Source: Rhodospirillales bacterium
GTDB lineage: Bacteria > Pseudomonadota > Alphaproteobacteria > Rhodospirillales > Casp-alpha2
Length of the DNA stretch: 64,000 nt
Assembly: GCA_965601835.1 (NCBI GenBank)
Contig: OZ271842.1
Coordinates: forward strand, 909,630 to 973,629
Direction of reading: 5' to 3'
How positions within the stretch are numbered: the first letter of the stretch is position 1; each line of letters begins with the position of its first letter. This document shows, piece after piece, positions 7,676 through 49,897 of the stretch. Made by a program: the position numbers and the translations under genes. The notes beneath the pieces were generated by a model, which worked only from the letters and a program-made list of their open reading frames with translations, was not told the origin of the DNA and ran no database searches.

Positions 7676-8650
7676 TTACGTAGGGTCGCCCGGTTTAAGC
7701 TCCGACACAAGCATTCGGGCCGCGTCGGTCGGGGTCATGCGGCCCTCGCGGACGTCGGATTCCAACGAGGCCGCAGACGTCTCATCCGCGCGCAGCCGCG
7801 CCAAAACGGTCGCCGTCGCCTCCTCCCACATCCAATGAACCGCCTGTTCGGCCCGGATTTCCGCCAGTTTGCCGCTCTGCTTGGCAATCGCGGCAAAATC
7901 TTCGATAGCGTCCCAGACCTCGGACAGACCGGATTTCTCGTGCGCCGAGCACCGCAGCACCTTCGGCGTCCACGCGCCGTCGCCGCTGTTCAATAGGTGC
8001 AGGGCTGAACCATAATCTTGATACGCGCGCGCCGCGGCAGCCTTGAGATCGCCATCGTCCTTGGTCACTACGATCAGGTCCGCCATCTCGACGATGCCTT
8101 TCTTGATGCCCTGCAGGTCGTCGCCGCCGCCGGGCGCGACCAGCAAAACGAACATATCCACCAATTGCGCGACCGCGTATTCGGATTGCCCGACGCCGAC
8201 GGTCTCGATCAGCACCACGTCGAAGCCCGCGGCCTCGACCGCGAGCACGGTTTCGCGGGTGCGCCGCGCCACCCCGCCGAGCGACGTGCCCGACGGCGAC
8301 GGGCGGATGAAAGCGTCTGGATGGCGGGACAGTTCCTCCATCCGGGTCTTGTCGCCGAGGATCGAGCCCCCGGATTTCGGGCTCGACGGATCGACGGCGA
8401 GCACCGCGACCTTGTGCCCGGCCTCGATGACATTCAGGCCGAACGCTTCGATGAACGACGACTTCCCGACCCCCGGCACGCCGGAAATGCCGATGCGGAT
8501 CGATTTGCCGGCGTTCGGCAGCAGCTCGGCGATCGCCGCCTCGGCCTCGGTCCGGTGGTCGGCGCGCGTGCTTTCGATCTTGGTGATCAAGCGCGCCAGC
8601 GCCCGGCGGCCCGCGCCCGCCGTCTCGGTCGGTTCGGACGTGTCGGTCAT
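7676..8650 (-). CDS. meaB: Methylmalonyl-CoA mutase accessory GTPase MeaB/ArgK
   Basis: P-loop GVPGVGKSS, then AVDPSS..SGGSILGDKTRM, ETVGVGQSE and the VVTKDD NKxD-like motif. Start at MTDTSEP (ATG 8650), 4-nt overlap with the upstream gene. Confidence 0.9.
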   Translation of the reverse strand: MTDTSEPTETAGAGRRALARLITKIESTRADHRTEAEAAIAELLPNAGKSIRIGISGVPGVGKSSFIEAFGLNVIEAGHKVAVLAVDPSSPKSGGSILGDKTRMEELSRHPDAFIRPSPSGTSLGGVARRTRETVLAVEAAGFDVVLIETVGVGQSEYAVAQLVDMFVLLVAPGGGDDLQGIKKGIVEMADLIVVTKDDGDLKAAAARAYQDYGSALHLLNSGDGAWTPKVLRCSAHEKSGLSEVWDAIEDFAAIAKQSGKLAEIRAEQAVHWMWEEATATVLARLRADETSAASLESDVREGRMTPTDAARMLVSELKPGDPT

Positions 8651-9093
8651 CGGCTGGGCTTTTTCTTCGGTTGTTTCTTTTTCGCCGGCGTCTTGCCGTC
8701 CATGTCGGCGCCGAAGGCGTGCATCGCCATGACCATCAGCTTTTCCCGCTGTTCCTGGGGCAGATCGTCCAGCACCCTGGATTGCTGGTCGTGGATCGAC
8801 AGCGCCTGCTCGATCAATGCCTGGCGGCCGGGCGGCAGGTTCTTTTTGCGCTCCAGCTCCTGGCCGGCGGCCTCGATCGCCCGGTGGATCAGCGTTTCCG
8901 GCAGCACGTCCTCGTCTTCGGTTGGCGGCGGCGGCGCCTTGGCGGCGGTCGCCGGTGCGGCGGATTTCTTCCCCGCGCCGCCCTTCTTCCTGCGGGCTTG
9001 GCGCTTGGTCTCTTGGATCGCGTCGTATTTGTCGCGCGCCTTCTTGTCCATGAACACGGACATCAACGCACGGGAGAAAATATTGCGAGCCAT
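8647..9093 (-). CDS. Hypothetical Lys/Ala/Pro-rich protein, translationally coupled to meaB
   Basis: ORF ends in an ATGA overlap with meaB. Start placed at MARNIFS (9093). No recognisable domain. Confidence 0.5.
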   Translation of the reverse strand: MARNIFSRALMSVFMDKKARDKYDAIQETKRQARRKKGGAGKKSAAPATAAKAPPPPTEDEDVLPETLIHRAIEAAGQELERKKNLPPGRQALIEQALSIHDQQSRVLDDLPQEQREKLMVMAMHAFGADMDGKTPAKKKQPKKKPSR

Positions 9094-9234
9094 GAAGCAC
9101 CTTGTCGTCAAAGCGTCACTGGTGGGTGACGACTCGATTATGTAACGGTAGGACTGACTGTTTTCCATGTAAATGGCCATGTGCCGCGGCCATTTTTGTA
9201 GCCAACCCAAGGCCTAGCAGGCTAAACACTCCCT

Positions 9235-10656: not shown

Positions 10657-11586
10657 TTGTCGGACCGGGGGGACCAACAGAGCGCGGCGGACAGCCGGCC
10701 CAGCGGCATGGACGCTGCCGTCGGCAGCCTGTGCGCGCTGGGCGCCTTCGGGTTTTGGGGGTTCATGCCCGTCTATTTCAAAGCGGTCGAAGCGGTGCCG
10801 CCGCTGGAGATCTTGGCGCACCGGGTGGTGTGGTCGGTGGTCTTGGTCGGCGGCGGCCTGTTCTTGTTGGGCAAGGGGCCGGAGGTGACCCGCGCGCTGC
10901 GCAACACGGCGCTGTTGAAACGGCTGACCGTCGCGACGTTGTTGCTAAGCGGTAATTGGCTGCTGTTCATCTGGGCGGTGACCAACGAGCACATCCTGCA
11001 AGGCAGCCTGGGGTATTACATCAATCCGCTGTTGAACGTGCTGCTGGGCGTCGCGCTGTTGAAGGAACGGCTCAGCATCCCACAGTGGACGGCGATCGGC
11101 TTGTCGGCGATGGGGGTGCTGGTGCTGACCTTCGGGCTCGGCGCGTTTCCGTGGATCGCCATCGGGCTTGCGATGCTGTTCTCGCTTTATGGCTATGTGC
11201 GCAAGACCACGCCCATCGGCGCCGCACCGGGGTTGCTGATCGAGACCTTGATCCTGTTGCTGCCGGCAGTGGGCTATCTGCTCTATTTGCACATGACCGG
11301 CGACGGTGCCTTCGGGCAATACGGCTGGGTGTTCGATCTCAAGATCGCGGCCGCCGGCATCATCACCGCGGTGCCGTTGGTGCTGTTCGCCGCAGCAGCC
11401 CTGCGTCTGCGCTATGCCACCGTCGGGGTGTTCCAAAACATCACGCCGACGCTGCATTTCTTGGTCGGGGTGTTTCTGTACGGCGAGATCTTCACCACCA
11501 GCCACGCCATCACCTTCGGCCTGATCTGGGTCGCGCTGGCGATCTACACCACCGACACCCTGCGCCGGCGGCGGGGGCCTTCGTAA
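10657..11586 (+). CDS. rarD: RarD-type EamA/DMT family transporter
   Basis: About 10 TM segments. N-terminal GFWGFMPVYFK...P..EILAHRVVWS is typical of RarD. TTG start at 10657; ATG 10708 is the alternative. Confidence 0.8.
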   Translation: MSDRGDQQSAADSRPSGMDAAVGSLCALGAFGFWGFMPVYFKAVEAVPPLEILAHRVVWSVVLVGGGLFLLGKGPEVTRALRNTALLKRLTVATLLLSGNWLLFIWAVTNEHILQGSLGYYINPLLNVLLGVALLKERLSIPQWTAIGLSAMGVLVLTFGLGAFPWIAIGLAMLFSLYGYVRKTTPIGAAPGLLIETLILLLPAVGYLLYLHMTGDGAFGQYGWVFDLKIAAAGIITAVPLVLFAAAALRLRYATVGVFQNITPTLHFLVGVFLYGEIFTTSHAITFGLIWVALAIYTTDTLRRRRGPS

Positions 11587-11632
11587 GCACGGGCGCGATG
11601 GCCGCGCGGCTGGTCGCCTGATCTTCGGCATG

Positions 11633-11675
11633 ACGTCGAACACGAAGATGCTCATCCACAGCCAGATGATGTCGG
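11633..11675. repeat. 43-bp direct repeat, copy 1: orphan fragment homologous to the middle of the 16048-16329 gene
   Basis: acgtcgaacacgaagatgctcatccacagccagatgatgtcgg versus 16127-16169 gives 40/43 identical, same orientation. On the minus strand it would encode DIIWLWMSIFVFDV. Confidence 0.85.
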
Positions 11676-11739
11676 ATATAGACAATGAGCCAGTTTCCAA
11701 CACTTGACGCAAAATTGAATTCCGGTGCACGCTTCGCTT

Positions 11740-11911
11740 GACGGTGCCCTTCGGGGCTAAAAGGGAAATCGGTGCAATCCACAGGATTAAATCCGATGCT
11801 GCCCTCGCAACTGTAGGTGGACAGCCACCGCCCATGATTTGCCACTGAACCACGAGGTTTGGGAAGGCGGGCGGAAAGGTGCATGAACCACAAGCCAGGA
11901 GACCTGCCGTC
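11740..11911 (+). promoter_or_regulatory. Cobalamin (B12) riboswitch
   Basis: aagggaaatcggtgcaatcc, ctgccc.cgcaactgtag, gccactg, gggaaggcgg, B12 box agccaggagacctgcc, and P1 gacgg/ccgtc. Lies about 95 nt upstream of an ABC binding-protein gene with RBS aggagg. Confidence 0.9.
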
Positions 11912-12006
11912 TGTGATCGCCCAGTTGTGCATCGAGGTGTGTGCGCAGCGCGGAACCCCGTCGAGGCGATAGACGTGTGTCTAAACTGCCGAGATAGGAG
12001 GTATCC

Positions 12007-13128
12007 GTGGCAAGATTCTGGTCAACGAGAACGTTATCGAAATATGGAATCGCAGGTGCTGTCGCCCTTACGGGGCTTCTGACAGTGTTTGGAACAACGG
12101 CTGTGCATTCCCAGGCTTTTTCCGTCGAGGATTTGCGAGGTAAGACGACCGAGTTTTCGGCCCCGGCGGAACGGCTGGTCATCATCCCCATTCCCATGTC
12201 ATCCGTTGTGATGGCGCTGGACGGCTCCACTCAGCGGATCGCAGCCATGCACCCGGTGGCGGTAAAATCGGTTCGGGACGGTTTCTTGGGGCGGATTTTT
12301 CCGGAAGCTGCCGATATTCCGTCCGACATCGTTGCGGGGGGACGGTTCAATCCGAACCTGGAGAGCGTATTGGCGCTAAAGCCCAATGCAGTGATCCAAT
12401 GGAAAAGCCCAGAAAAGATCATCGCGCCATTGGAGAACGCTGGGCTGAAGGTCATAGGCCTGCAAAACAACCCGAAAAGCCAGGAATTGAATGAACGGAA
12501 TCTGACGATCCTTGCGACCGTCATCGGCCAAGAGGCTCGACTGGAACAGGTACTTTCGCGGCACCACACGCGCTTGGACGAGATCGCGGAGCAAGCCAAG
12601 AAACTGAACGAGGGTGATCGCCCCCGTGCTCTGTACATGCGCATTCAGGGTGGCAAACTGCGCACAGCGGGGACGGATACGTATCAGAGTTTTTGGCTTG
12701 AATTGGGCGGCGCGGACAATCCCGCAGTTGATGCGGGGCTAAAGGGCTTGGCGCCCGTCACGGATGAACAAGTTATCGCCTGGAATCCCGAGATCATCAT
12801 CCTCAGTGCGTTCGACAAAATGACACCCGCCGAAGTTTACGCAAATCCGGTGTATGCCGGGTTGGATGCGGTACAGAACCGGCGTGTCTATAAAATCCCT
12901 CACGGCGGTTATCGCTGGGACCCGGCCAGTCACGAAAGCCACTTGGCCTGGAGTTGGGCGTCGATGGTCTTGAACCCTGACGTGTTTACTTTCCCGCTTC
13001 GCGACGACATGCGCTCTGCCTACCAGTTGTTCTACGGACACGATCTGACGGATGCAGAAATCGACGAGATACTGCAGGTGTCGTTGAACAGTGATAGCGC
13101 GGGGTATGAGGCCTTTGCGCCACACTGA
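12007..13128 (+). CDS. ABC transporter periplasmic binding protein, BtuF/FecB-like (class III, Peripla_BP_2)
   Basis: Signal peptide. Position as first gene after the B12 riboswitch, followed by a FecCD permease and an ATPase. GTG start 5 nt after aggagg. Confidence 0.8.
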   Translation: MARFWSTRTLSKYGIAGAVALTGLLTVFGTTAVHSQAFSVEDLRGKTTEFSAPAERLVIIPIPMSSVVMALDGSTQRIAAMHPVAVKSVRDGFLGRIFPEAADIPSDIVAGGRFNPNLESVLALKPNAVIQWKSPEKIIAPLENAGLKVIGLQNNPKSQELNERNLTILATVIGQEARLEQVLSRHHTRLDEIAEQAKKLNEGDRPRALYMRIQGGKLRTAGTDTYQSFWLELGGADNPAVDAGLKGLAPVTDEQVIAWNPEIIILSAFDKMTPAEVYANPVYAGLDAVQNRRVYKIPHGGYRWDPASHESHLAWSWASMVLNPDVFTFPLRDDMRSAYQLFYGHDLTDAEIDEILQVSLNSDSAGYEAFAPH

Positions 13129-14152
13129 CGCCATCCGCACGTCTTGGTCTTCGGGGCGAGAGAGCCTAATTGTCTGGGTCCTGATTTGCGTTTCGCCACT
13201 TGTGGCGGTCCTGATCGCATTGGGCACCGGGCGCGTATCGCTGACTCCCCTGCAAATCGTGTCTGCACTCTGGGCACCCGACGCCAATCTCTACGATAGC
13301 GCCATCGTCTGGCACGCCCGCCTTCCCCGGACATTGACAAGTCTGCTGGTGGGGGCCGGGCTTGGCGCAAGCGGCGCCGCCTTGCAGGGATTATTCCGAA
13401 ACCCTCTGGCGGGTCCGCAGACCGTCGGTGTGCTCAGTGGCGCAGGCTTCGGCGGCTCGCTCGCGATCTTCATGGGCCTGGGATCGACATACATCATCGC
13501 GGGCGCCTTTGCGGCGGGCCTCTTGGCCGTATTTGCCGTCATCGCCTTCGCGCGTCTGGCGGGCGGTCTTTCGGTTCTGATGATCGTACTCGCAGGCATT
13601 CTGGTGAGTTCCTTGGCCGCAGCGGGTACCACCTTGATGCAATACGCTGCCGATCCTGAAGAACAGTTGCCCGAACTTGTCTATTGGCTGATGGGCAGTT
13701 TCGCAGGGACGACACTGAGCGAGGTCTTTGGTCTGATCACCGCGGTATCTATCGGCGTGGTTATTCTGTGGGGGTACGCTTTGCGTATCGATCTGATGTC
13801 CAGCGGCGAAGATGAGGCCCGTGCTTTTGGGCTGAACTTGAGACGAGATCGTTTCATCGTCCTCGCCGCCGTTGCGCTCACCTGTGCAGCGGGTGTCGCT
13901 GTTTCCGGCGTCATCGGATGGGTCGGCTTGGTCGTGCCCCATGCCGCCCGGTTTCTTGTTGGACCTGGCCATCGCCGACTGATTTTGGCCTCAGCCTTGA
14001 TCGGAGCGGCGTTTCTATGCCTGATCGACACAGCAGCGCGAAGCTTGACGGCTGCGGAGTTACCGGTCTCTGCGCTCACCGCGTTGATCGGCGCACCCGT
14101 GTTCCTGGCCCTGTTGGCGGGCTTGCGTAGGAGCGGAGGCCACGATGCTTGA
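13106..14152 (+). CDS. FecCD/BtuC-family ABC permease
   Basis: About 9-10 TM segments. RLPR..T.LLVGAGLG.SGA..Q and the C-terminal ELPVSALTALIGAPVFL are typical of FecCD. Alternative GTG start at 13091. Confidence 0.85.
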   Translation: MRPLRHTDAIRTSWSSGRESLIVWVLICVSPLVAVLIALGTGRVSLTPLQIVSALWAPDANLYDSAIVWHARLPRTLTSLLVGAGLGASGAALQGLFRNPLAGPQTVGVLSGAGFGGSLAIFMGLGSTYIIAGAFAAGLLAVFAVIAFARLAGGLSVLMIVLAGILVSSLAAAGTTLMQYAADPEEQLPELVYWLMGSFAGTTLSEVFGLITAVSIGVVILWGYALRIDLMSSGEDEARAFGLNLRRDRFIVLAAVALTCAAGVAVSGVIGWVGLVVPHAARFLVGPGHRRLILASALIGAAFLCLIDTAARSLTAAELPVSALTALIGAPVFLALLAGLRRSGGHDA

Positions 14153-14873
14153 AGCAAAACGGATCGGTCTGAAAATCAGAGGGCGTTGGTTGTGGCGCGA
14201 TCTCGACCTCGCTGCGACGGAAGGACAGGTCCTTGGACTTCTTGGGCCAAACGGCGTCGGAAAGACGACCCTTTTGCGATGCCTTACGGGTCTACTCGAT
14301 CCGACCGAAGGTCACGTGACGCGCCCCCGCGTCACTGGCTACGTCCCGCAGAAGAGTGAAATCGGTTTCTCCTTCACGGCCCGTGATGTCGTGGCAATGG
14401 GATTGGCGGCACAAAAAAGACTGTTCGAAAATCTCAACCGATCCGATGATGAACGCATCGCGTCCGCATTGGCGCGGACTGAGGCACGAACATTCGCAGA
14501 TCGTGCATTCACGACCCTATCTGGCGGCGAGCGACAATTGGTCCTCATTGCGCGGGCGCTGGTCACCGGTGCACGACATGTCATTTTGGACGAACCGTTC
14601 GCTGCGCTCGATCTTCGACATCAATCGCTTGTTTTGCGGATGCTAAAAAGTTTGGCGCATGACGATGGGTTATCGGTCATATTCGCCGCACACGATCCAA
14701 ACCACCTATTGGCTTCTGCCGACCAGGCGTTGGTTCTTGCGTCCGGCTTACCGCCTGTACAAGGCCCAACCGATGAAATGCTCTCGGAAAGCCGACTCTC
14801 CGAGCTTTACGGTTTGCGCATTGGCGTTTCGTCGTCCGAACTAGGCCGTCACGTCCTGCCCAACTATATTTAA
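14145..14873 (+). CDS. ABC transporter ATPase, BtuD/FecE-like
   Basis: Walker A GPNGVGKTT, signature LSGGERQ, Walker B ILDEP. 8-nt overlap with the permease. Confidence 0.9.
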   Translation: MLEAKRIGLKIRGRWLWRDLDLAATEGQVLGLLGPNGVGKTTLLRCLTGLLDPTEGHVTRPRVTGYVPQKSEIGFSFTARDVVAMGLAAQKRLFENLNRSDDERIASALARTEARTFADRAFTTLSGGERQLVLIARALVTGARHVILDEPFAALDLRHQSLVLRMLKSLAHDDGLSVIFAAHDPNHLLASADQALVLASGLPPVQGPTDEMLSESRLSELYGLRIGVSSSELGRHVLPNYI

Positions 14874-14898
14874 TGCATTCGATGGGAGAGCCACCACG

Positions 14899-15816
14899 AT
14901 GACTATTCATGTCGCCAGAACGGGCCTTTGCTGGGGGATCGAGCTCGCTTACGCGCGGATCGATAAGTTGGCGGCGCAGGAGGATGCTGTCGCCGTGACC
15001 CATCGAACGGCCGCGGACCCCAACATGTCGAGGTGGGACCCGGTACAGCGGATTACCGCTGACAACGAGAAACTGTTCGAGCGTTATCCCAATTTGCGGA
15101 CGGTCAGTGTTTTAAAGGATGTGGAGAGCGCGCCGGGCAACGCGAAACTGGCAATTGGGCATCAGGGACTCTATCAAGACGAGATCGCGGTACGTCAGGT
15201 CGAGGGTAGAGAGATTTTCGACTACAAATGTCCTTTCATTGCAAAATTCGATGAATGGGCGGACCGGCTCGCGGGCGAAGGCTACGATCTCATCGCGTTT
15301 GGAAAACCCAAGAACCACCACTCCATCTATGCGATGGCGGCAGCGGAAAGAAACAACAAGATTGGTTTGGTGGCCGAGTCGGTCGACGATATCAGAGACC
15401 AGCTTGGCGAAGAGGGTCGCAATTGGGCGTGCATCGGCCAGGTTACCGGCAACACGGCAAACTGGGAAAAATTCAAATCAGACCTTGCGGCGACTGGTGT
15501 ATCCGTTCGCATTCGCAACACGGTCTGCACGGACTCATACGAACGCCAAGACGAAGCCGTTGAACTGGCCCGCACCTGTGATGTGGTGATGGTCGTCGAT
15601 GATCGGGGGGGTGCCACGACGAGCGTTTATGAACAGTGCGTCGCCGCGAACAACCGCAGCTTCCGATTTGATCCAGATAGCGAGCTGCCCACCGAGCGAT
15701 TCGACAACGCCGAAACCGTCGCAATTGTGGGAGGCATCCTCGTCCCCAAGTGGACGCTTCGGGAAGTCGCCGAAAGAGTAAGATCGGTTACAGGCGGAGA
15801 CATCGTTGTGCGGTAG
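14899..15816 (+). CDS. Divergent IspH/LytB-like [4Fe-4S] protein, probably not an HMBPP reductase
   Basis: By-eye full-length alignment to E. coli IspH. Cys triad retained (GLCWG, YKCPF, NTVCTD..ERQ), but the GHPE and SSN substrate motifs are replaced. Confidence 0.7.
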   Translation: MTIHVARTGLCWGIELAYARIDKLAAQEDAVAVTHRTAADPNMSRWDPVQRITADNEKLFERYPNLRTVSVLKDVESAPGNAKLAIGHQGLYQDEIAVRQVEGREIFDYKCPFIAKFDEWADRLAGEGYDLIAFGKPKNHHSIYAMAAAERNNKIGLVAESVDDIRDQLGEEGRNWACIGQVTGNTANWEKFKSDLAATGVSVRIRNTVCTDSYERQDEAVELARTCDVVMVVDDRGGATTSVYEQCVAANNRSFRFDPDSELPTERFDNAETVAIVGGILVPKWTLREVAERVRSVTGGDIVVR

Positions 15817-15954
15817 CGGCAGGGCAACTGCCCACATTTATTCAAGTCAGGACTAGCAGTGTGTCCGTCTGCGCCCTTGGCGCGGACCCGTTTCATCAAA
15901 GGTGCGAAAGATATTTGTCGGTTACGACACCGCGCCGCGCCGACCATCCCCGCC

Positions 15955-16038
15955 CTCCTGAACGTGCCTCAGGATCCAGCGTTCATGGGATAAGCGGTGG
16001 CGCCGTGACTACTGGATCCCGACGTGCGTCAGGATGAC
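15955..16038. repeat. MITE/REP-like two-hairpin element, copy B (inverted relative to 6334-6418)
   Basis: Reverse complement begins gtcatcctgacgcacgtcgggatccag and ends gttcaggag. Lies between the cassette and the 3' end of the small membrane-protein gene. Confidence 0.8.
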
Positions 16039-16047
16039 GTAGAGGCC

Positions 16048-16329
16048 CTACGGCCCGAACTGCTTGTGGCCCTTTCCTAAGAACCAGAAGCTGATCGCCA
16101 GCGTCATGCCGGTCACCGTCACCCAGACATCGAACACGAAGATGCTCATCCACAGCCACGTGATGTCGGCGCGGAACATGATGTCGCGGAGGTTGGCGAC
16201 GTTGGTCACCAACAGCCCGCCCGACACGCAGAACGACAACAGCGTGCCGAGGATGCCGCGCTTGATGATGAAGGTGAAGAACTGCCGCCGGCTCTCGTAC
16301 AGTTCGGCGAAGGGGGACGGATCGCTCAT
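16048..16329 (-). CDS. Small membrane protein (2-3 TM), coupled to the upstream peroxiredoxin-like gene
   Basis: ATGA overlap with 16326-16865; hydrophobic segments. Contains repeat copy 2 (16127-16169). Confidence 0.65.
   Translation of the reverse strand: MSDPSPFAELYESRRQFFTFIIKRGILGTLLSFCVSGGLLVTNVANLRDIMFRADITWLWMSIFVFDVWVTVTGMTLAISFWFLGKGHKQFGP
16127..16169. repeat. 43-bp direct repeat, copy 2 (inside the intact gene)
   Basis: See 11633-11675. Confidence 0.85.
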
Positions 16330-16865
16330 GCGGCCTCCGTATCCGCCTCGTCGGAATCGCCGCGCGGCGGGTAGTTGCGCGCCCGGATCATATCGACCGC
16401 CTCTAACACGTCGGCGTGGTGGTGCCGGTGGAACGGCGTGGTGTGGATGACGTTGCTATAGAGCGTCTGGTCCGGCCGGATCAGGAACAGCCCCGGCTCC
16501 GCGAAATGCCGGGTCTCCTTCTCCTGAAACGCATTGGAGATATAGAGCCCCCAGGCGCGCGCCTGTTCCAGGGTCATGCCGTAGGCGACCGGCAGCTGAT
16601 GCAGGCCCCATTCGGCGACCGTCCTATCGGCCCGGTCCTGCGGATCGGTGGAGACCGCCAGCACGCCGCAACCGCGCTCCGCATAGCGCGCGATCTTGTG
16701 GTCCAGATCCAACAGCTGGCTCTTGCAGCGCGGACAGTGATAGCCGCGATAGACCTCGACCACGGTGAAGGTCTCGGGCGTCTGTTCCGACAGGGTCCAG
16801 GTGCCGCCGCCGACCAGCGGGACGCGCAAATCCGGGACCGGCTTTCCGGGTATCAATCGCGACAT
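16326..16865 (-). CDS. AhpC/TSA (redoxin) family peroxiredoxin-like protein
   Basis: Thioredoxin-fold pattern PVPDL...G....L...... FTVVEVYRGYHCPRC, and VLAVSTD. Confidence 0.75.
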   Translation of the reverse strand: MSRLIPGKPVPDLRVPLVGGGTWTLSEQTPETFTVVEVYRGYHCPRCKSQLLDLDHKIARYAERGCGVLAVSTDPQDRADRTVAEWGLHQLPVAYGMTLEQARAWGLYISNAFQEKETRHFAEPGLFLIRPDQTLYSNVIHTTPFHRHHHADVLEAVDMIRARNYPPRGDSDEADTEAA

Positions 16866-17832: not shown

Positions 17833-18345
17833 TTAACTCTCGATCTTCCAGTCGCCGTCCGGCATTTGACACGCGGTGCCGTAGCCGACCTGCGCCTCGC
17901 CGCCGACGATCACTTCGGTCTGGTATTCCCGGCAATAGGCGCCGGTCCGGGTATGGGTTCCTTCGCGGGTCGGCGTGACCGATCCGCTGTTACCGCTTTT
18001 GGGGTTCGACCAGGAAATCGTCTCACCCACCGGGGCGTCCCAGGCCACGGTCTGCGCCCGTTGCGCATAGGCCTGGTCGGCGCGGTCGAGGGATTTACCC
18101 ACTTCGCCGCCGAACAGGCCGCCGAGCACAGCACCCGCCGCCGTCGCCACCAATTGGCCGTTCCCCTTGCCGACCTGAGATCCGGCAAGACCGCCGAGAC
18201 CGGCACCCAACACGGCACCCACGGCCTGCTTGTCACCGGAATCGGTGACGCAGCCACCCAGCATGCCGACGCTGAGCACGGCCACCAGCGGCAGGGTCCA
18301 CCGCAGTCGGCGACGTCGTTCGGATATCGCATAAGAATGTGTCAT
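17833..18345 (-). CDS. Glycine-zipper outer-membrane lipoprotein (17-kDa surface antigen-like)
   Basis: Lipobox LGGC, glycine zipper GAVLGAGLGGLAGSQVG...GAVLGGLFGG, and a C-terminal ...YCREY... domain. ATG 18345 preceded by aggagg. Confidence 0.8.
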   Translation of the reverse strand: MTHSYAISERRRRLRWTLPLVAVLSVGMLGGCVTDSGDKQAVGAVLGAGLGGLAGSQVGKGNGQLVATAAGAVLGGLFGGEVGKSLDRADQAYAQRAQTVAWDAPVGETISWSNPKSGNSGSVTPTREGTHTRTGAYCREYQTEVIVGGEAQVGYGTACQMPDGDWKIES

Positions 18346-18559
18346 TTTTGGTCCTCCTGTATCGGCACCATTTGAATCCGTTAATGACATCATATTTAAG
18401 TTTATTTTTATTGTCAATTATGTTTTTAAATATATATCTACTTGAGCGTGATCTTTACTTCTTGCTTGTTATCAATGCGATAGAGGTAGACACATCGAAG
18501 AACTGCCCCTATATATAAAAATAAAATTATCAATAAATTTGTGCTTATTGGGGTGTGAG

Positions 18560-18958
18560 ATGCCGCTGACCTATACTGATAGACAACGCCGGGAGTACCT
18601 GACGTTCACGGATCAGGTGGGGCAGAATTGGGTCCGCGTATTTCAGGGCGATACCGAGTTCTATTCCGCCGCGTACTGGGATTTGCTGACGTTTCTGTGG
18701 CGCCATGGCCAGCCGGTGCGCAAAACCGAGGCCCTCAAGGCGATCACCGGGGTGCGCAGTCCGCTGACCGCCGCGAAGTATGCCGATACCGCCATCGCCC
18801 GCGGCATGATCGTCGAGCAGGAAAACCCGGAGGACGCGCGCTCGAAACTGCTGAGCTTGTCCCACGCCATGCGCGCGCAGTTGGACGGCTTTTTCGACGA
18901 CGCCGTCCACGAGCTAAGAAAGGCGGCGGACCGGGTCGGCGCGCCGGACAGCGCCTAG
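18560..18958 (+). CDS. MarR-like winged-helix transcriptional regulator (tentative)
   Basis: Small size, a helix-turn-helix-like central segment and ...DARSKLLSLSHAMRAQL resembling the MarR wing/helix. Divergent from the lipoprotein gene across an AT-rich region. Confidence 0.5.
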   Translation: MPLTYTDRQRREYLTFTDQVGQNWVRVFQGDTEFYSAAYWDLLTFLWRHGQPVRKTEALKAITGVRSPLTAAKYADTAIARGMIVEQENPEDARSKLLSLSHAMRAQLDGFFDDAVHELRKAADRVGAPDSA

Positions 18959-19416
18959 AGGTAATCCCGCAGCATCGCCACCAGCGGCGCATCGGCCGGC
19001 GGCATGGGGTAATCGCCGAGCCGCACCGGCCGCACCCACTTGATCTCCTGGCCCTCATGCGGCGTCACCTGACCGTGCCAGACCCGGCACAGATACAGCG
19101 GCATCAGCAGGTGGAAATCCTCGTAAACATGGCTCGCGAAGGTGAACGGCGCGAGGCAGGTTTCCGTCAGATCGATGCCCAGTTCCTCACGCAGCTCGCG
19201 CACCAACGCGGTTTCCGGAAACTCGCCCGGCTCGACCTTACCGCCCGGGAACTCCCACAGTCCGGCCATGGACTTGCCCTCGGGCCGCCGCGCGATCAGC
19301 ACCCGGTCGTCCGCGTCGATGAGAGCCGCGGCGACAACCAGTATTGTTTTCAGCGACTTACCCGCGCCCGAGAACGGCGCGTCCCAGCAGCCGCTATCAG
19401 GACCGGTAGTCGGCAT
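18955..19416 (-). CDS. mutT: NUDIX hydrolase, MutT-like 8-oxo-dGTP diphosphatase
   Basis: Nudix box GLWEFPGGKVEPGEFPETALVRELREELG. Confidence 0.85.
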   Translation of the reverse strand: MPTTGPDSGCWDAPFSGAGKSLKTILVVAAALIDADDRVLIARRPEGKSMAGLWEFPGGKVEPGEFPETALVRELREELGIDLTETCLAPFTFASHVYEDFHLLMPLYLCRVWHGQVTPHEGQEIKWVRPVRLGDYPMPPADAPLVAMLRDYL

Positions 19417-45594: not shown

Positions 45595-47904
<2,310 letters not shown>

Positions 47905-49122
47905 TTACCATGCGTCCATCGCCGCCTTGAGATTGTCATCCAGTTTGGCGAGGAATTGCTGGGTCGTCATCCAGCCCTGTTCGGGCCCGATCAACAGTGC
48001 CAAATCCTTGGTCATAAATCCGCTTTCGACGGTCTCGATACAGACCCTTTCCAGTGTTTCCGCGAACCGGGTCACGTCCGGCGTACCGTCGAATTTGCCG
48101 CGATAGCTCAAGCCCCGGGTCCAGGCGAAGATCGACGCGATTGGATTGGTCGAGGTTTCCTTGCCTTGTTGATGCTGACGGTAATGCCGGGTCACGGTGC
48201 CGTGCGCTGCTTCGGCTTCGACCGTTTTGCCGTCGGGGGTCAACAGCACAGAGGTCATCAACCCGAGCGAGCCGAACCCCTGCGCCACGGTATCGGATTG
48301 CACGTCGCCGTCATAGTTCTTGCAGGCCCACAGGAAACCACCTTCCCACTTCATGGCGCACGCCACCATGTCGTCGATCAGGCGCTCTTCGTAGGTGATG
48401 CCGGCGGCCGCGTATTGGTCCTTGAACTCGGTTTCGAAGACCTCGCGGAACAGTTCAACGAACCGGCCGTCGTATTGCTTGAGGATCGTGTCCTTGTGCG
48501 ACATGTACACCGGCCACCCGAGATCGAGGCCATAGTTCAAACAGGCCCGGGCGAAGCCGCGAATCGACTCGTCCAAATTATACATCGCCATGGTGACGCC
48601 GGAGCCGGGCGCATCGAATACTTCCTTTTCGATCACCTGCCCGTCGGCGCCCTCGAATTTGATCGAGAGCTTGCCGGGCCCTTGGAACTGGAAGTCGGTG
48701 GCGCGGTATTGGTCGCCAAAGGCATGACGGCCGATGACAATCGGTTTGGTCCATCCGGGCACCAGCCGCGGCACGTTCTTGCAGACGATCGGCTGCCGGA
48801 AAATCGTACCGCCGATGATGTTGCGTATGGTGCCGTTGGGCGAGCGCCACATTTCCTTGAGGCCGAATTCCTCCATCCGCTGGGGCGTCGCCGTGATCGT
48901 CGCGCATTTGACGCCGACACCATATTCCTTGATCGCGTGCGCGGCGTCGACGGTGATCTGATCGGCCGTCTCGTCGCGTTTTTGGATGCTGAGATCGTAG
49001 TACTTGAGATCGACTTCCAAGTACGGACGGATCAGCTTGTCCTTGATGAATTCCCAGATAATCCGCGTCATTTCGTCGCCGTCGAGTTCGACGACGGGCG
49101 TGACCACTTTAATCTTCGACAT
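47905..49122 (-). CDS. icd: Homodimeric eukaryote-like (type II) NADP-isocitrate dehydrogenase (~405 aa)
   Basis: [27 protein letters not shown]-like, [33 protein letters not shown] 49122. Confidence 0.9.
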
Positions 49123-49258
49123 GAGGCGTCTCTCCTGATGGCCGCCGCGGCGCTCTGAACGTCCGGCGGGTCTTCCCCCACAACGCGCACCGCATGCACG
49201 CCGGCGGCGGAACGATAGGATTTGCGGTTGGTAATGACAAGGCGGCCCAGCGCGACAT

Positions 49259-49897
49259 TCAGAGCTTGTCCGGGTCCGCGCCGCCGCTTGCCACGGGCAC
49301 GGTCTCCAACAACTCCAGAACCTCTTCGACGGTGGGCACCACCGTAAATAGCTTGGCACTTTCGGCGTAGGCGTATCCCTCGTCGACGAAGTGCGCCACC
49401 ATGTCCGAAAGGGGCGACCAAAACCCGTTGCGATCCAAAACGATCACCGGTTTGTCGTGCAACCCAAGTTGCCGCCAGGTGATGATTTCCACGGTCTCGT
49501 CCAAGGTGCCCAGCCCCCCCGCCAGGGAAACAAAGGCATCGGACAACTCGAACATCCGTCTTTTGCGGCTATGCATGCTGTCGGTGACTTCCAACTGCTC
49601 GATCTCGGTATTGCCGAGCTCGCGGCGCATCAGAAAATCAGGGATCACGCCCGTTGCCTTGCCGCCGGCCCCGGTCACCGCATCGGCGACAGCGCCCATG
49701 AGCCCAACCCGGCCCCCACCGTAGATCAAGCGGATTTGCCGCGCCGCTAAGCCCCGTCCGAAAATCTCTGCATCGGCGAGATGCTGCGGGTCTACCCCCG
49801 GCTTGGAGCCGCAAAATACCGCGACGGATTTGGGTAACGACATAGTGAGGGGCCTCCCGGGCGTCTTGGCAGAATCAGGGTTGGAACTGAACGTCAT
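49259..49897 (-). CDS. LOG family (TIGR00730) nucleotide 5'-monophosphate nucleosidase
   Basis: VFCGS, YGGG..GLMG, and PGGLGTLDE-like GGLGTLDE motifs. Alternative start at 49843. Confidence 0.85.

Follow-up and report, generated by a model that had tools for sequence, protein, structure and literature searches.

A divergent IspH-fold iron-sulfur protein encoded at the end of a cobalamin-riboswitch-led importer operon

IspH (LytB), the 4-hydroxy-3-methylbut-2-enyl diphosphate (HMBPP) reductase of isoprenoid synthesis, has been studied intensively as a drug target and serves as a model of organometallic iron-sulfur (Fe-S) chemistry. The roles of its cluster ligands, of its diphosphate pocket and of the E126/T167 proton relay (E. 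coli numbering) are established biochemistry, and to our knowledge the IspH fold is known so far for this single physiological reaction. The enzymes described for corrinoid processing are of other kinds: PduS (an Fe-S flavoprotein) and CobR (a flavoprotein) are corrinoid cobalt reductases that feed adenosyltransferases, and CblC/MMACHC and BtuM carry out the decyanation or dealkylation of incoming cobalamin. FhuF and ViuB/YqjH are siderophore reductases encoded together with FecCD-type importers. Here we describe a 64,000-nucleotide stretch of a Rhodospirillales genome (contig OZ271842.1; hereafter the window, with coordinates counted from its first base), in which a gene for a LytB-like protein lies at the end of an operon that is headed by a cobalamin riboswitch and encodes a BtuFCD-like ATP-binding cassette (ABC) importer. 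An earlier note on this DNA had proposed that the protein is a divergent relative of IspH with a different substrate. Its divergence from orthodox IspH is borne out by family-model scores, a score gap, a neighbor-joining (NJ) tree and a residue map, and we consider it very probable that the protein belongs to a rare, monophyletic clade, sharply separated from IspH and linked to cobalamin or cobalt.

The LytB-like protein and its clade

The 305-aa protein is well above the gathering score of the Pfam LYTB family (Table 1), and it missed all eight NCBIfam IspH models by a factor of at least two, with, for instance, 84.5 bits against the 187.85 required by TIGR00216 and 93.1 against 276 for NF002187. 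In a sequence search of the PDB the best match was Aquifex IspH (E 2e-19), and E. coli IspH was found at E 5e-6. An AlphaFold2 (AF2) model built on 19 relatives had a pLDDT of 93.7 and a pTM of 0.89, and a Foldseek search with this model returned IspH structures only (probability 1.0, 14-21% identity), with TM-scores of 0.77-0.80 to the closed E. coli and Plasmodium forms and of 0.59-0.66 to the open Aquifex form. The similarities to IspH (PF02401; PDB 3dnf, 3ke8, 4n7b) comprise the three-domain trefoil, three cysteines with one in each domain, the histidine H124, and the Arg-Gln pair after the third cysteine. The overall identity is only 17-23%.

The residue map was obtained with a profile from 99 orthodox IspHs and E. 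coli IspH; the E. coli numbering used here fits the published key residues and is consistent with the alignment to PDB sequences. Three kinds of alignment (pairwise, MAFFT and profile) agree in equating C11, C111 and C210 with the E. coli cluster cysteines C12, C96 and C197, as the earlier note had assigned them by eye, and this conservation implies a [4Fe-4S] cluster with one non-cysteinyl iron. The Arg-Gln pair is kept as R216-Q217. In the proton relay, E126 corresponds to S142 and T167 to V182, the latter being invariant in the clade. In the diphosphate pocket, S225/S226/N227 correspond to a gap, G238 and A239, S269 corresponds to L281, H41 is without a histidine counterpart, and H74 is replaced by Q89 in this subgroup, although it is still a histidine in 90 of 98 clade members. 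The previous suggestion that the catalytic motifs were replaced is therefore correct for E126, the SSN motif and S269, neither E126 nor SxN being conserved under proper alignment, but it fails for H124, which is retained as H140. Across the clade, position 142 is a cysteine in 87 of 98 members, never a glutamate, and is Ser, Val or Thr in the remaining 11. We considered C142 as a general fourth-cysteine cluster ligand and discarded it, as the window protein itself is among these 11 exceptions.

The space of the former diphosphate pocket is now occupied by the small or apolar residues G238, A239, I280, L281 and V282, accompanied by the new invariant polar residues D212, S213, D235 and S242. Other features without equivalent in IspH are the invariant H141 and W285, and a helical insertion of ~20 residues (residues ~41-68) that carries the invariant D47 and R51. 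The clade proteins are also acidic rather than basic, with a median pI of 5.8-6.1 compared to 8.4 for orthodox IspH. From these alignments and the model, the protein is predicted to be cytoplasmic and to have the IspH trefoil fold with the three cluster cysteines kept and the fourth iron open, and the diphosphate pocket and the proton relay both appear to be lost. With both lost, the protein is very unlikely to be an HMBPP reductase of the known kind.

The possibility that the gene encodes an orthodox IspH paralogue, that is, a second HMBPP reductase, draws on the Pfam LYTB score of 104 bits, on the fold match and on annotation, since many clade members are labelled '4-hydroxy-3-methylbut-2-enyl diphosphate reductase' by JGI. 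This label is contradicted by the residue analysis, in which seven of ten residues for catalysis or substrate binding are replaced, and the protein falls below every NCBIfam equivalog cut-off. The large score gap, the monophyly of the clade and a genomic context that is never isoprenoid-related point the same way, so that we regard this reading as extremely improbable and close to refuted.

The extent of the clade was established by two large-scale protein searches. A word-indexed search of 5.8 billion proteins recovered 110 clusters at 33-74% identity, without any orthodox IspH; about 110 clusters, including the window protein, have 40 invariant columns in common, far more than chance could produce. 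In an exhaustive profile search of 1.84 billion representatives, full-length members scored 330-454 bits, whereas orthodox IspHs, including the IspH-S1 fusions, reached a plateau at no more than 157 bits; the window protein was the top match (454 bits), and the full-length members amounted to approximately eight clusters at 50% identity, along with fragments. Conversely, with an orthodox-IspH profile the clade members scored 133-167 bits and E. coli IspH 289 bits. In the NJ tree, 103 clade sequences form a single group relative to 40 orthodox IspHs, E. coli IspH and the intermediate sequence P0243, and this group is divided into subclade A (27 tips), to which the window protein belongs, and subclade B (76 tips). 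The mean identity is 48% within the clade, 38% among orthodox IspHs and 23% between the two. P0243 is a protein of 305 aa that scored 190 bits, midway between the clade and orthodox IspH. It has the three cysteines and QTT but lacks the HPE motif, the NHHC motif and the SxN loop, and may be another offshoot of the LytB fold.

Among 98 full-length relatives, the invariant or nearly invariant positions are the three cysteines, H140-H141, Q181-V-T, D212-S213, R216-Q217, D235, S242 and G279-I-L-V-P-x-W285. They form a signature composed of C-x-G-I, N-H-H-(C/S), Q-V-T-G-N, C-x-D-S-x-x-R-Q, D-D-x-G-G and G-G-I-L-V-P-x-W, together with the D47/R51 insertion, and every signature residue is present in the window protein. 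Members of the clade are scarce in assembled genomes. A narrow-alignment locus search detected only two loci among 185,579 species-representative genomes, in a Rhizobiaceae and a Xanthobacteraceae metagenome-assembled genome (MAG), and in metagenome contigs one true clade locus plus one orthodox-IspH locus. A tblastn search of plasmids returned orthodox IspH genes only and no clade member. We also searched the literature for IspH or LytB in association with cobalamin riboswitches, btuF or cob genes and for IspH-like paralogues, and the clade is undescribed in the searchable full texts, a scope outside which most subscription papers lie. This agrees with the earlier note, which named no characterised IspH paralogue in cobalamin uptake operons.

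Operon organization and gene contexts across the clade

The LytB-like gene is the last cistron of a riboswitch-led, BtuFCD-like importer operon with which, by all signs in the sequence, it is co-transcribed (Table 1). The genes for a cluster-A binding protein, a FecCD permease and an ABC ATPase form one operon in which genes overlap or abut, and 25 nt separate the ATPase stop from the LytB-like start. Open reading frames (ORFs) and Pfam matches agree with the four tightly packed same-strand genes described previously, and the riboswitch that the earlier note had placed at 11740-11911 lies inside the RF00174 match, which is the sole Rfam match within the window. In the expression platform we did not see a U-tract terminator, and for this reason translational gating is plausible; the predicted RNA fold, in which the Shine-Dalgarno region of the first gene is partly paired with upstream sequence (minimum free energy -48.8 kcal/mol, z -1.96), is suggestive only. 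A consensus scan limited to sigma-70-type sites gave no such promoter in 11400-16400, including ahead of the LytB-like gene. The hairpin at the end of this gene is a weak consensus match (7 such sites were found against 4.5 expected in the region), and it is the only terminator-like site on the + strand of the scanned region, located exactly at the operon end.

Table 1. Coordinates and supporting evidence of the features of the operon and of the membrane partner found in related loci.
Feature	Position	Strand	Evidence and remarks
Cobalamin riboswitch aptamer, RF00174	11725-11925	+	cmscan 110.5 bits vs gathering score 31.5, E 8.1e-27, model 1-189 of 189
B12 box AGCCAGGAGACCTGCC	11893-11908	+	Read from sequence
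Expression platform of the riboswitch	11926-12006	+	Contains the strong Shine-Dalgarno AGGAGG (11996-12001) of the first gene
Peripla_BP_2 periplasmic binding protein, cluster A, N-terminal signal-like segment	12007-13128	+	PF01497, 81 bits
FecCD/BtuC-type ABC permease	13091-14152	+	PF01032, 266.5 bits
ABC transporter ATPase	14145-14873	+	PF00005, 95.6 bits
Shine-Dalgarno GGGAGAG of the LytB-like gene	14884-14890	+	Sequence; 8 nt 5' of ATG
LytB/IspH-fold protein, 305 aa	14899-15816	+	Pfam LYTB PF02401, 104.3 bits vs gathering score 24.5
Terminator-like hairpin GGCAG-GGCAA-CTGCC with T-rich tail CACATTTATT	15818-15842 (hairpin 15818-15832)	+	Pattern scan; starts 2 nt 3' of the LytB-like stop
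Six-helix membrane partner (absent from window)	L004:7347-7985; L011:7374-7988; L012:6122-6727		Directly 5' of the LytB-like gene

The riboswitch is of the adenosylcobalamin (AdoCbl) class, for which we assume ligand-dependent repression, as is usual for the class; the earlier statement that the protein is expressed when B12 is scarce would follow from this usual action. The importer resembles E. coli BtuFCD in its three-component type II ABC architecture and in the cobalamin-riboswitch control of B12 uptake genes. It differs in its component sequences, all of which fall below the cut-offs of the corresponding equivalogs (34 vs 234 bits for BtuF NF002894, 210 vs 461 for BtuC NF007081 and 92 vs 281 for BtuD NF002981). 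For the binding protein, every NCBIfam BtuF or FecB model is below cut-off, and the protein is closest in the PDB to 4ovk (E 3e-50), a binding protein that is itself unassigned, compared with 29 bits for E. coli BtuF. NF007081 is the top NCBIfam match of the permease, and the ATPase is closest to models of heme, F420-0 and corrinoid ABC ATPases, again below cut-off. The only pointer to a corrinoid as the cargo of this importer is the riboswitch.

We surveyed the gene contexts of the clade on the basis of 12 exact-protein look-ups. Subclade A is represented by nine distinct loci (the window, L001/2/3/5, L006, L007/8, L009/10, L014, L015/16, L017 and L018). An orthologous ABC ATPase gene is located directly 5' of the LytB-like gene in all nine, and a full-length RF00174 aptamer (109-133 bits) precedes the cassette in each of the five loci with a 5' end covered by the contig (the window, L001, L007, L014 and L017). 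The binding proteins, permeases and ATPases are 45-66% identical to those of the window, and therefore the whole cassette co-diverges. In L009, a DUF1636 gene overlaps the stop codon of the LytB-like gene. DUF1636 is a predicted thioredoxin-like [2Fe-2S] ferredoxin (PMC4520260), and in Phaeobacter a cobalamin biosynthesis operon under riboswitch control begins with the gene for it (bioRxiv 10.64898/2025.12.19.695462). The protein could plausibly donate electrons to the LytB-like protein.

Several cassettes are in decay. An in-frame fusion or deletion joins ABC-ATPase(1-138) to LytB(105-296) at L006:6665-7681; at L007:5815-7980 the binding protein is truncated and the ATPase frameshifted, identically in two independent assemblies; and at L014:8001-8940 the LytB-like gene is frameshifted. 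IS3-family and Tn3 transposases and a resolvase adjoin the cassette in L007 and L015. The decay in three loci, these mobile elements and the atypical composition of the operon in the window (GC 0.555-0.61, GC at third codon positions (GC3) 0.65-0.68) would be expected of a passenger gene, an Fe-S protein of unrelated function that is carried along with the importer genes on mobile DNA, in the manner of btuE in E. coli btuCED. Against such a passenger, the linkage persists down to 41% identity with co-diverging partners, and subclade B is linked to cobalt or cobalamin genes through quite different architectures, which hitch-hiking with one cassette cannot explain. We judge this explanation improbable.

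In subclade B, the LytB-like gene of L004, L011 and L012 lies directly 3' of a gene for a very hydrophobic and strongly conserved protein of 201-212 aa; none was found in the window. This membrane partner matched no Pfam or NCBIfam family and had no sequence match to any PDB chain, and its own family consists of >216 clusters, 65-94% identical, all annotated as 'hypothetical'. Its AF2 model (pLDDT 86.7) has six long helices, and the single meaningful fold match is the S-component 5edl of an energy-coupling factor (ECF) transporter, a moderate match (probability 1.00, TMq 0.55, E 0.2). According to this model, a solitary carrier of a vitamin or a metal is a possible role for the partner. Seven LytB-like clusters and as many partner clusters come from the same source and have longest contigs of equal size (28,144 nt for P0077/P0172 and 9,137 nt for P0043/P0158, among others), which suggests that they may be further pairs of the same type.

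The remaining contexts of subclade B involve metals and cobalamin in several ways. In L021, the LytB-like gene ends an operon of cbiC/TP_methylase, cbiG, cbiJ, cbiD, cobO (TIGR00708, 198 bits) and an SsuA-like binding protein gene, and is thus one gene removed from cobO. It is directly followed by a cobalamin riboswitch (7953-8125, 94.9 bits) that leads, up to 13770, the genes for an outer-membrane-like protein, cbtB, a 32-aa ORF, cbtA and cobN (TIGR02257, 1273 bits). The first of these products, a 262-aa signal-peptide protein with the look of an outer-membrane beta-barrel and no family match, may be an outer-membrane cobalt channel. In L020, the gene stands between a TonB-dependent receptor, closest to heme-type and then to B12-type models, and a NikA/Opp-type ABC importer, with exbB-exbD-tonB and a Fur-family regulator upstream. 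In L011, the LytB-like/partner pair is divergent from a nitrile hydratase whose alpha subunit contains VCTLCSC, which we take to be the cobalt-type signature. At its N-terminus this alpha subunit is extended by an unusual His-rich segment, HDHSHHHDDEHDHGPHHGHNHPH, and four ORFs of the cluster (L011:4830-7230, - strand) match NHase_beta domains (three NHase_beta_N and one NHase_beta_C), so that the beta subunit is apparently split or multiplied. In every architecture, the gene adjoins importer or cobalt/cobalamin genes and never isoprenoid genes; across at least five different architectures the clade is wired to cobalamin/cobalt acquisition. The linkage of the clade to cobalamin riboswitches and importer genes, which the earlier note had left for a survey, is found in subclade A, with the transporter in all nine loci and the riboswitch in the five whose 5' end could be examined, and, through the cob cluster of L021, in subclade B. 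We also examined the SsuA-like binding proteins of L021 and L011 as a third recurring partner, and set them aside as they are only remotely similar.

These SsuA/NMT1-type proteins, which typically bind small heterocycles or sulfonates and flank the gene in both loci, would fit an enzyme that acts away from cobalt, namely one for the reductive dehydroxylation or dehydration of a small non-diphosphate metabolite, imported by the transporter, for cobamide assembly or salvage (e.g. a lower-ligand or linker precursor). Such a reaction is the most conservative extrapolation from IspH chemistry, and the small and apolar residues that now line the former diphosphate pocket, with the new invariant polar residues (D212, S213, D235, S242), speak for it. 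On the other hand, we know of no step in cobamide assembly that requires it, the two SsuA-like proteins are not orthologous, and the usual cargo of FecCD/cluster-A systems and of TonB-dependent receptors is a large chelate instead of a small precursor. This role seems unlikely to us.

A different neighbourhood was found at L012:7934-9018 and L013:3490-4574, where queD (TIGR03367, 82 bits, just below cut-off) and queE (TIGR03365, 334 bits) lie on the same strand as the S-component-like/LytB-like pair and 300 nt 3' of it; nothing else points to queuosine for the clade. In L004, a GTP cyclohydrolase I gene is located 3.4 kb upstream. Both observations bear on the possibility of a B12-independent back-up that replaces a cobalamin-dependent enzyme, as metE does for metH; an example would be a third epoxyqueuosine reductase, beside QueH and the B12-dependent QueG. 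Control by a riboswitch with OFF logic is what typically marks a B12-independent isozyme. One example is gbcAB (bioRxiv 10.64898/2025.12.19.695462). IspH chemistry removes oxygen with two electrons, as does that of QueG. Several findings nevertheless argue against a back-up enzyme. The gene is never a stand-alone riboswitch unit, being appended to the importer in all nine subclade-A loci, and its position after cobO in the B12 biosynthesis cluster of L021 makes little sense for a B12-independent isozyme. Moreover, the S-component-like, TonB and ABC partners suggest a small imported substrate, the acidic pI disfavours tRNA binding, and the que linkage amounts to one independent observation. We therefore hold this explanation, too, to be unlikely.

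A possible role in the reduction of imported cobalt chelates

The reading that we put forward, tentatively and from gene context, is that the clade proteins are cytoplasmic Fe-S reductases acting on an imported cobalt chelate. That this chelate is a corrinoid is a more doubtful proposition, and that it is a non-corrin cobalt chelate is unlikely. In all natural cobalamins known, and in most of the organically complexed cobalt of oxic habitats, the metal is present as substitution-inert Co(III), and it must be reduced before adenosylation by CobO/BtuR/PduO or before its release. The earlier note had considered upper-ligand removal, cob(III) reduction or remodelling of imported corrinoids, roles which the gene context would allow. 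The neighbouring Co-type nitrile hydratase, the Fur-linked TonB/NikA-type importer and the S-component-like partner without a riboswitch suggest that what the contexts share may be cobalt or metal chelates at large and not B12 in particular.

In the mechanism that we envisage, low cobalamin would permit expression of the operon through the riboswitch, and the ABC system would bring in a cobalt chelate, most likely a corrinoid with substitution-inert Co(III). The LytB-like enzyme would receive low-potential electrons from a ferredoxin, such as the DUF1636 protein that is co-operonic in one relative, and would reduce the Co(III) of the chelate to Co(II) or Co(I), possibly in an inner-sphere manner via the upper ligand (OH, CN) at the open iron. 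A [4Fe-4S] cluster whose open iron normally binds a substrate oxygen would be chemically suited to transfer through such an OH or CN bridge. The upper ligand would then depart and the corrinoid would become a substrate of the adenosyltransferase CobO/BtuR/PduO; in relatives with cobalt contexts other than B12, the same chemistry could free Co(II) from other imported Co(III) chelates. The reading of the protein as a cobalt reductase is suggested by the proximity to cobO in L021, the co-operonic ferredoxin in L009 and the feedback logic of the AdoCbl riboswitch, as well as by the parallels to FhuF/ViuB of siderophore operons and to the PduS/CobR enzymes of B12 metabolism. More speculative is that the clade represents a new class of Fe-S enzymes, in which the open-iron site of IspH has been repurposed for inner-sphere reduction of Co(III) in imported chelates; we regard this as a possibility of rather low probability.

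The comparison with described systems clarifies what would be new. PduS, CobR and the CobA-flavodoxin system have the role proposed here, the supply of electrons to corrinoid cobalt before adenosylation, and PduS provides an Fe-S precedent; they are unrelated to the clade protein in sequence and fold, use flavin, and none has an IspH-type open-iron cluster. CblC/MMACHC and BtuM occupy the conceptual position that the clade protein would have, namely the processing of the upper ligand just after import, with folds and cofactors unrelated to those of the clade protein. BtuM is, in addition, a solitary S-component-like protein, and the partner in subclade B is S-component-like as well, but this partner is without the conserved cysteine that BtuM uses to bind cobalt. 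FhuF and ViuB/YqjH show a comparable operon logic, as cytoplasmic reductases co-expressed with a cluster-A/FecCD/ABC importer that reduce an inert trivalent metal chelate once it has been taken up. They differ in the metal (iron as opposed to the presumed cobalt), in the protein, which is a [2Fe-2S] protein for FhuF and has a flavin siderophore-interacting protein fold in the other case, and in regulation, by Fur instead of a cobalamin riboswitch.

A number of points weigh against a cobalt-chelate reductase. The substrate assignment draws on gene neighbourhood alone, the binding protein has only a distant relationship with BtuF proteins that have been characterised, and L004, L011 and L012 have neither a riboswitch nor upstream space for one, which is unusual for B12 importers. 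The AF2 model resembles the closed form of IspH, in which the pocket is small and buried, and a 1.3-kDa corrinoid would therefore need an open conformation. The residue at the E126 equivalent is not constant (C, S, V or T). The decay in three of the nine subclade-A loci (L006, L007 and L014) shows that some lineages can do without the module. In model bacteria cobalamin is already reduced by flavins and flavodoxin, which makes an enzyme devoted to this task non-essential, and btuE of E. coli shows that an enzyme gene in a btu operon need not serve B12 uptake.

If cobalt-chelate reduction by the clade is correct, then for corrinoids the protein would be a bacterial functional counterpart of CblC/CobR and supply the long-missing dedicated step between B12 uptake and adenosylation; in the relatives, it would account for the release of cobalt from non-corrin 'cobalophore'-type ligands taken up via TonB/ABC systems or S-component-like carriers. 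It would also offer the first genetic handle on the bacterial use of organically complexed Co(III), and would fill a gap in B12 metabolism, the fate of Co(III) corrinoids and cobalt chelates between import and cofactor assembly, in bacteria without CobR, PduS or CblC. The sister clade would be the first natural neofunctionalisation of the IspH scaffold, with the cluster site kept, the pocket rebuilt, and the gene linked to a cobalamin riboswitch, to a B12-type importer, to cobO, to cbtAB/cobN and to a cobalt enzyme. The name '4-hydroxy-3-methylbut-2-enyl diphosphate reductase' is probably wrong for more than 100 database entries, and the Pfam-less S-component-like membrane family gains its first functional lead. 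The rarity of the clade limits the breadth of these implications; the finding comes as a surprise to both the IspH field and the B12 field.

The surrounding window

The operon is embedded in a housekeeping region with secA, argJ, mutT, pyk, accA and aroB, where it is flanked by a RarD/EamA-like gene (10657-11586) on one side and a gene for a small membrane protein (16048-16329, - strand) on the other. The SecA protein shows 82-83% identity to those of Rhodospirillales MAGs and of a Thalassospiraceae isolate. Neither cob genes nor a second IspH were found within the window. The gene for MeaB, a chaperone of AdoCbl-dependent mutases, is located 2.6 kb upstream of the operon, from which we infer that the host uses AdoCbl enzymes. 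The operon differs from its flanks in composition, with a GC content of 0.555-0.61 compared to 0.63-0.68 and a GC3 of 0.65-0.68 compared to 0.8-0.9 (11600-16000), and Hyphomicrobiales MAGs contain the nearest relatives that are named. Horizontal acquisition of the operon as an island is probable.

The meaB ORF (7676-9100, - strand) encodes 474 aa, of which the MeaB domain covers residues 167-438 only. The N-terminal ~165 residues are rich in Arg, Gly, Pro and Ala and of low complexity, corresponding either to an over-extended ORF call or to an unusual disordered extension. A second GC dip (0.537-0.55), at 18000-19000, lies over the 5' end of a gene for a 17-kDa-antigen-like lipoprotein (17833-18417, - strand) and also spans an intergenic region and a small putative regulator gene (18539-18958). 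Finally, two isocitrate dehydrogenase genes adjoin each other at 45595-49359 (- strand), one for a monomeric enzyme of 760 aa (PF03971) and the other for an Iso_dh-type enzyme of 483 aa (PF00180).

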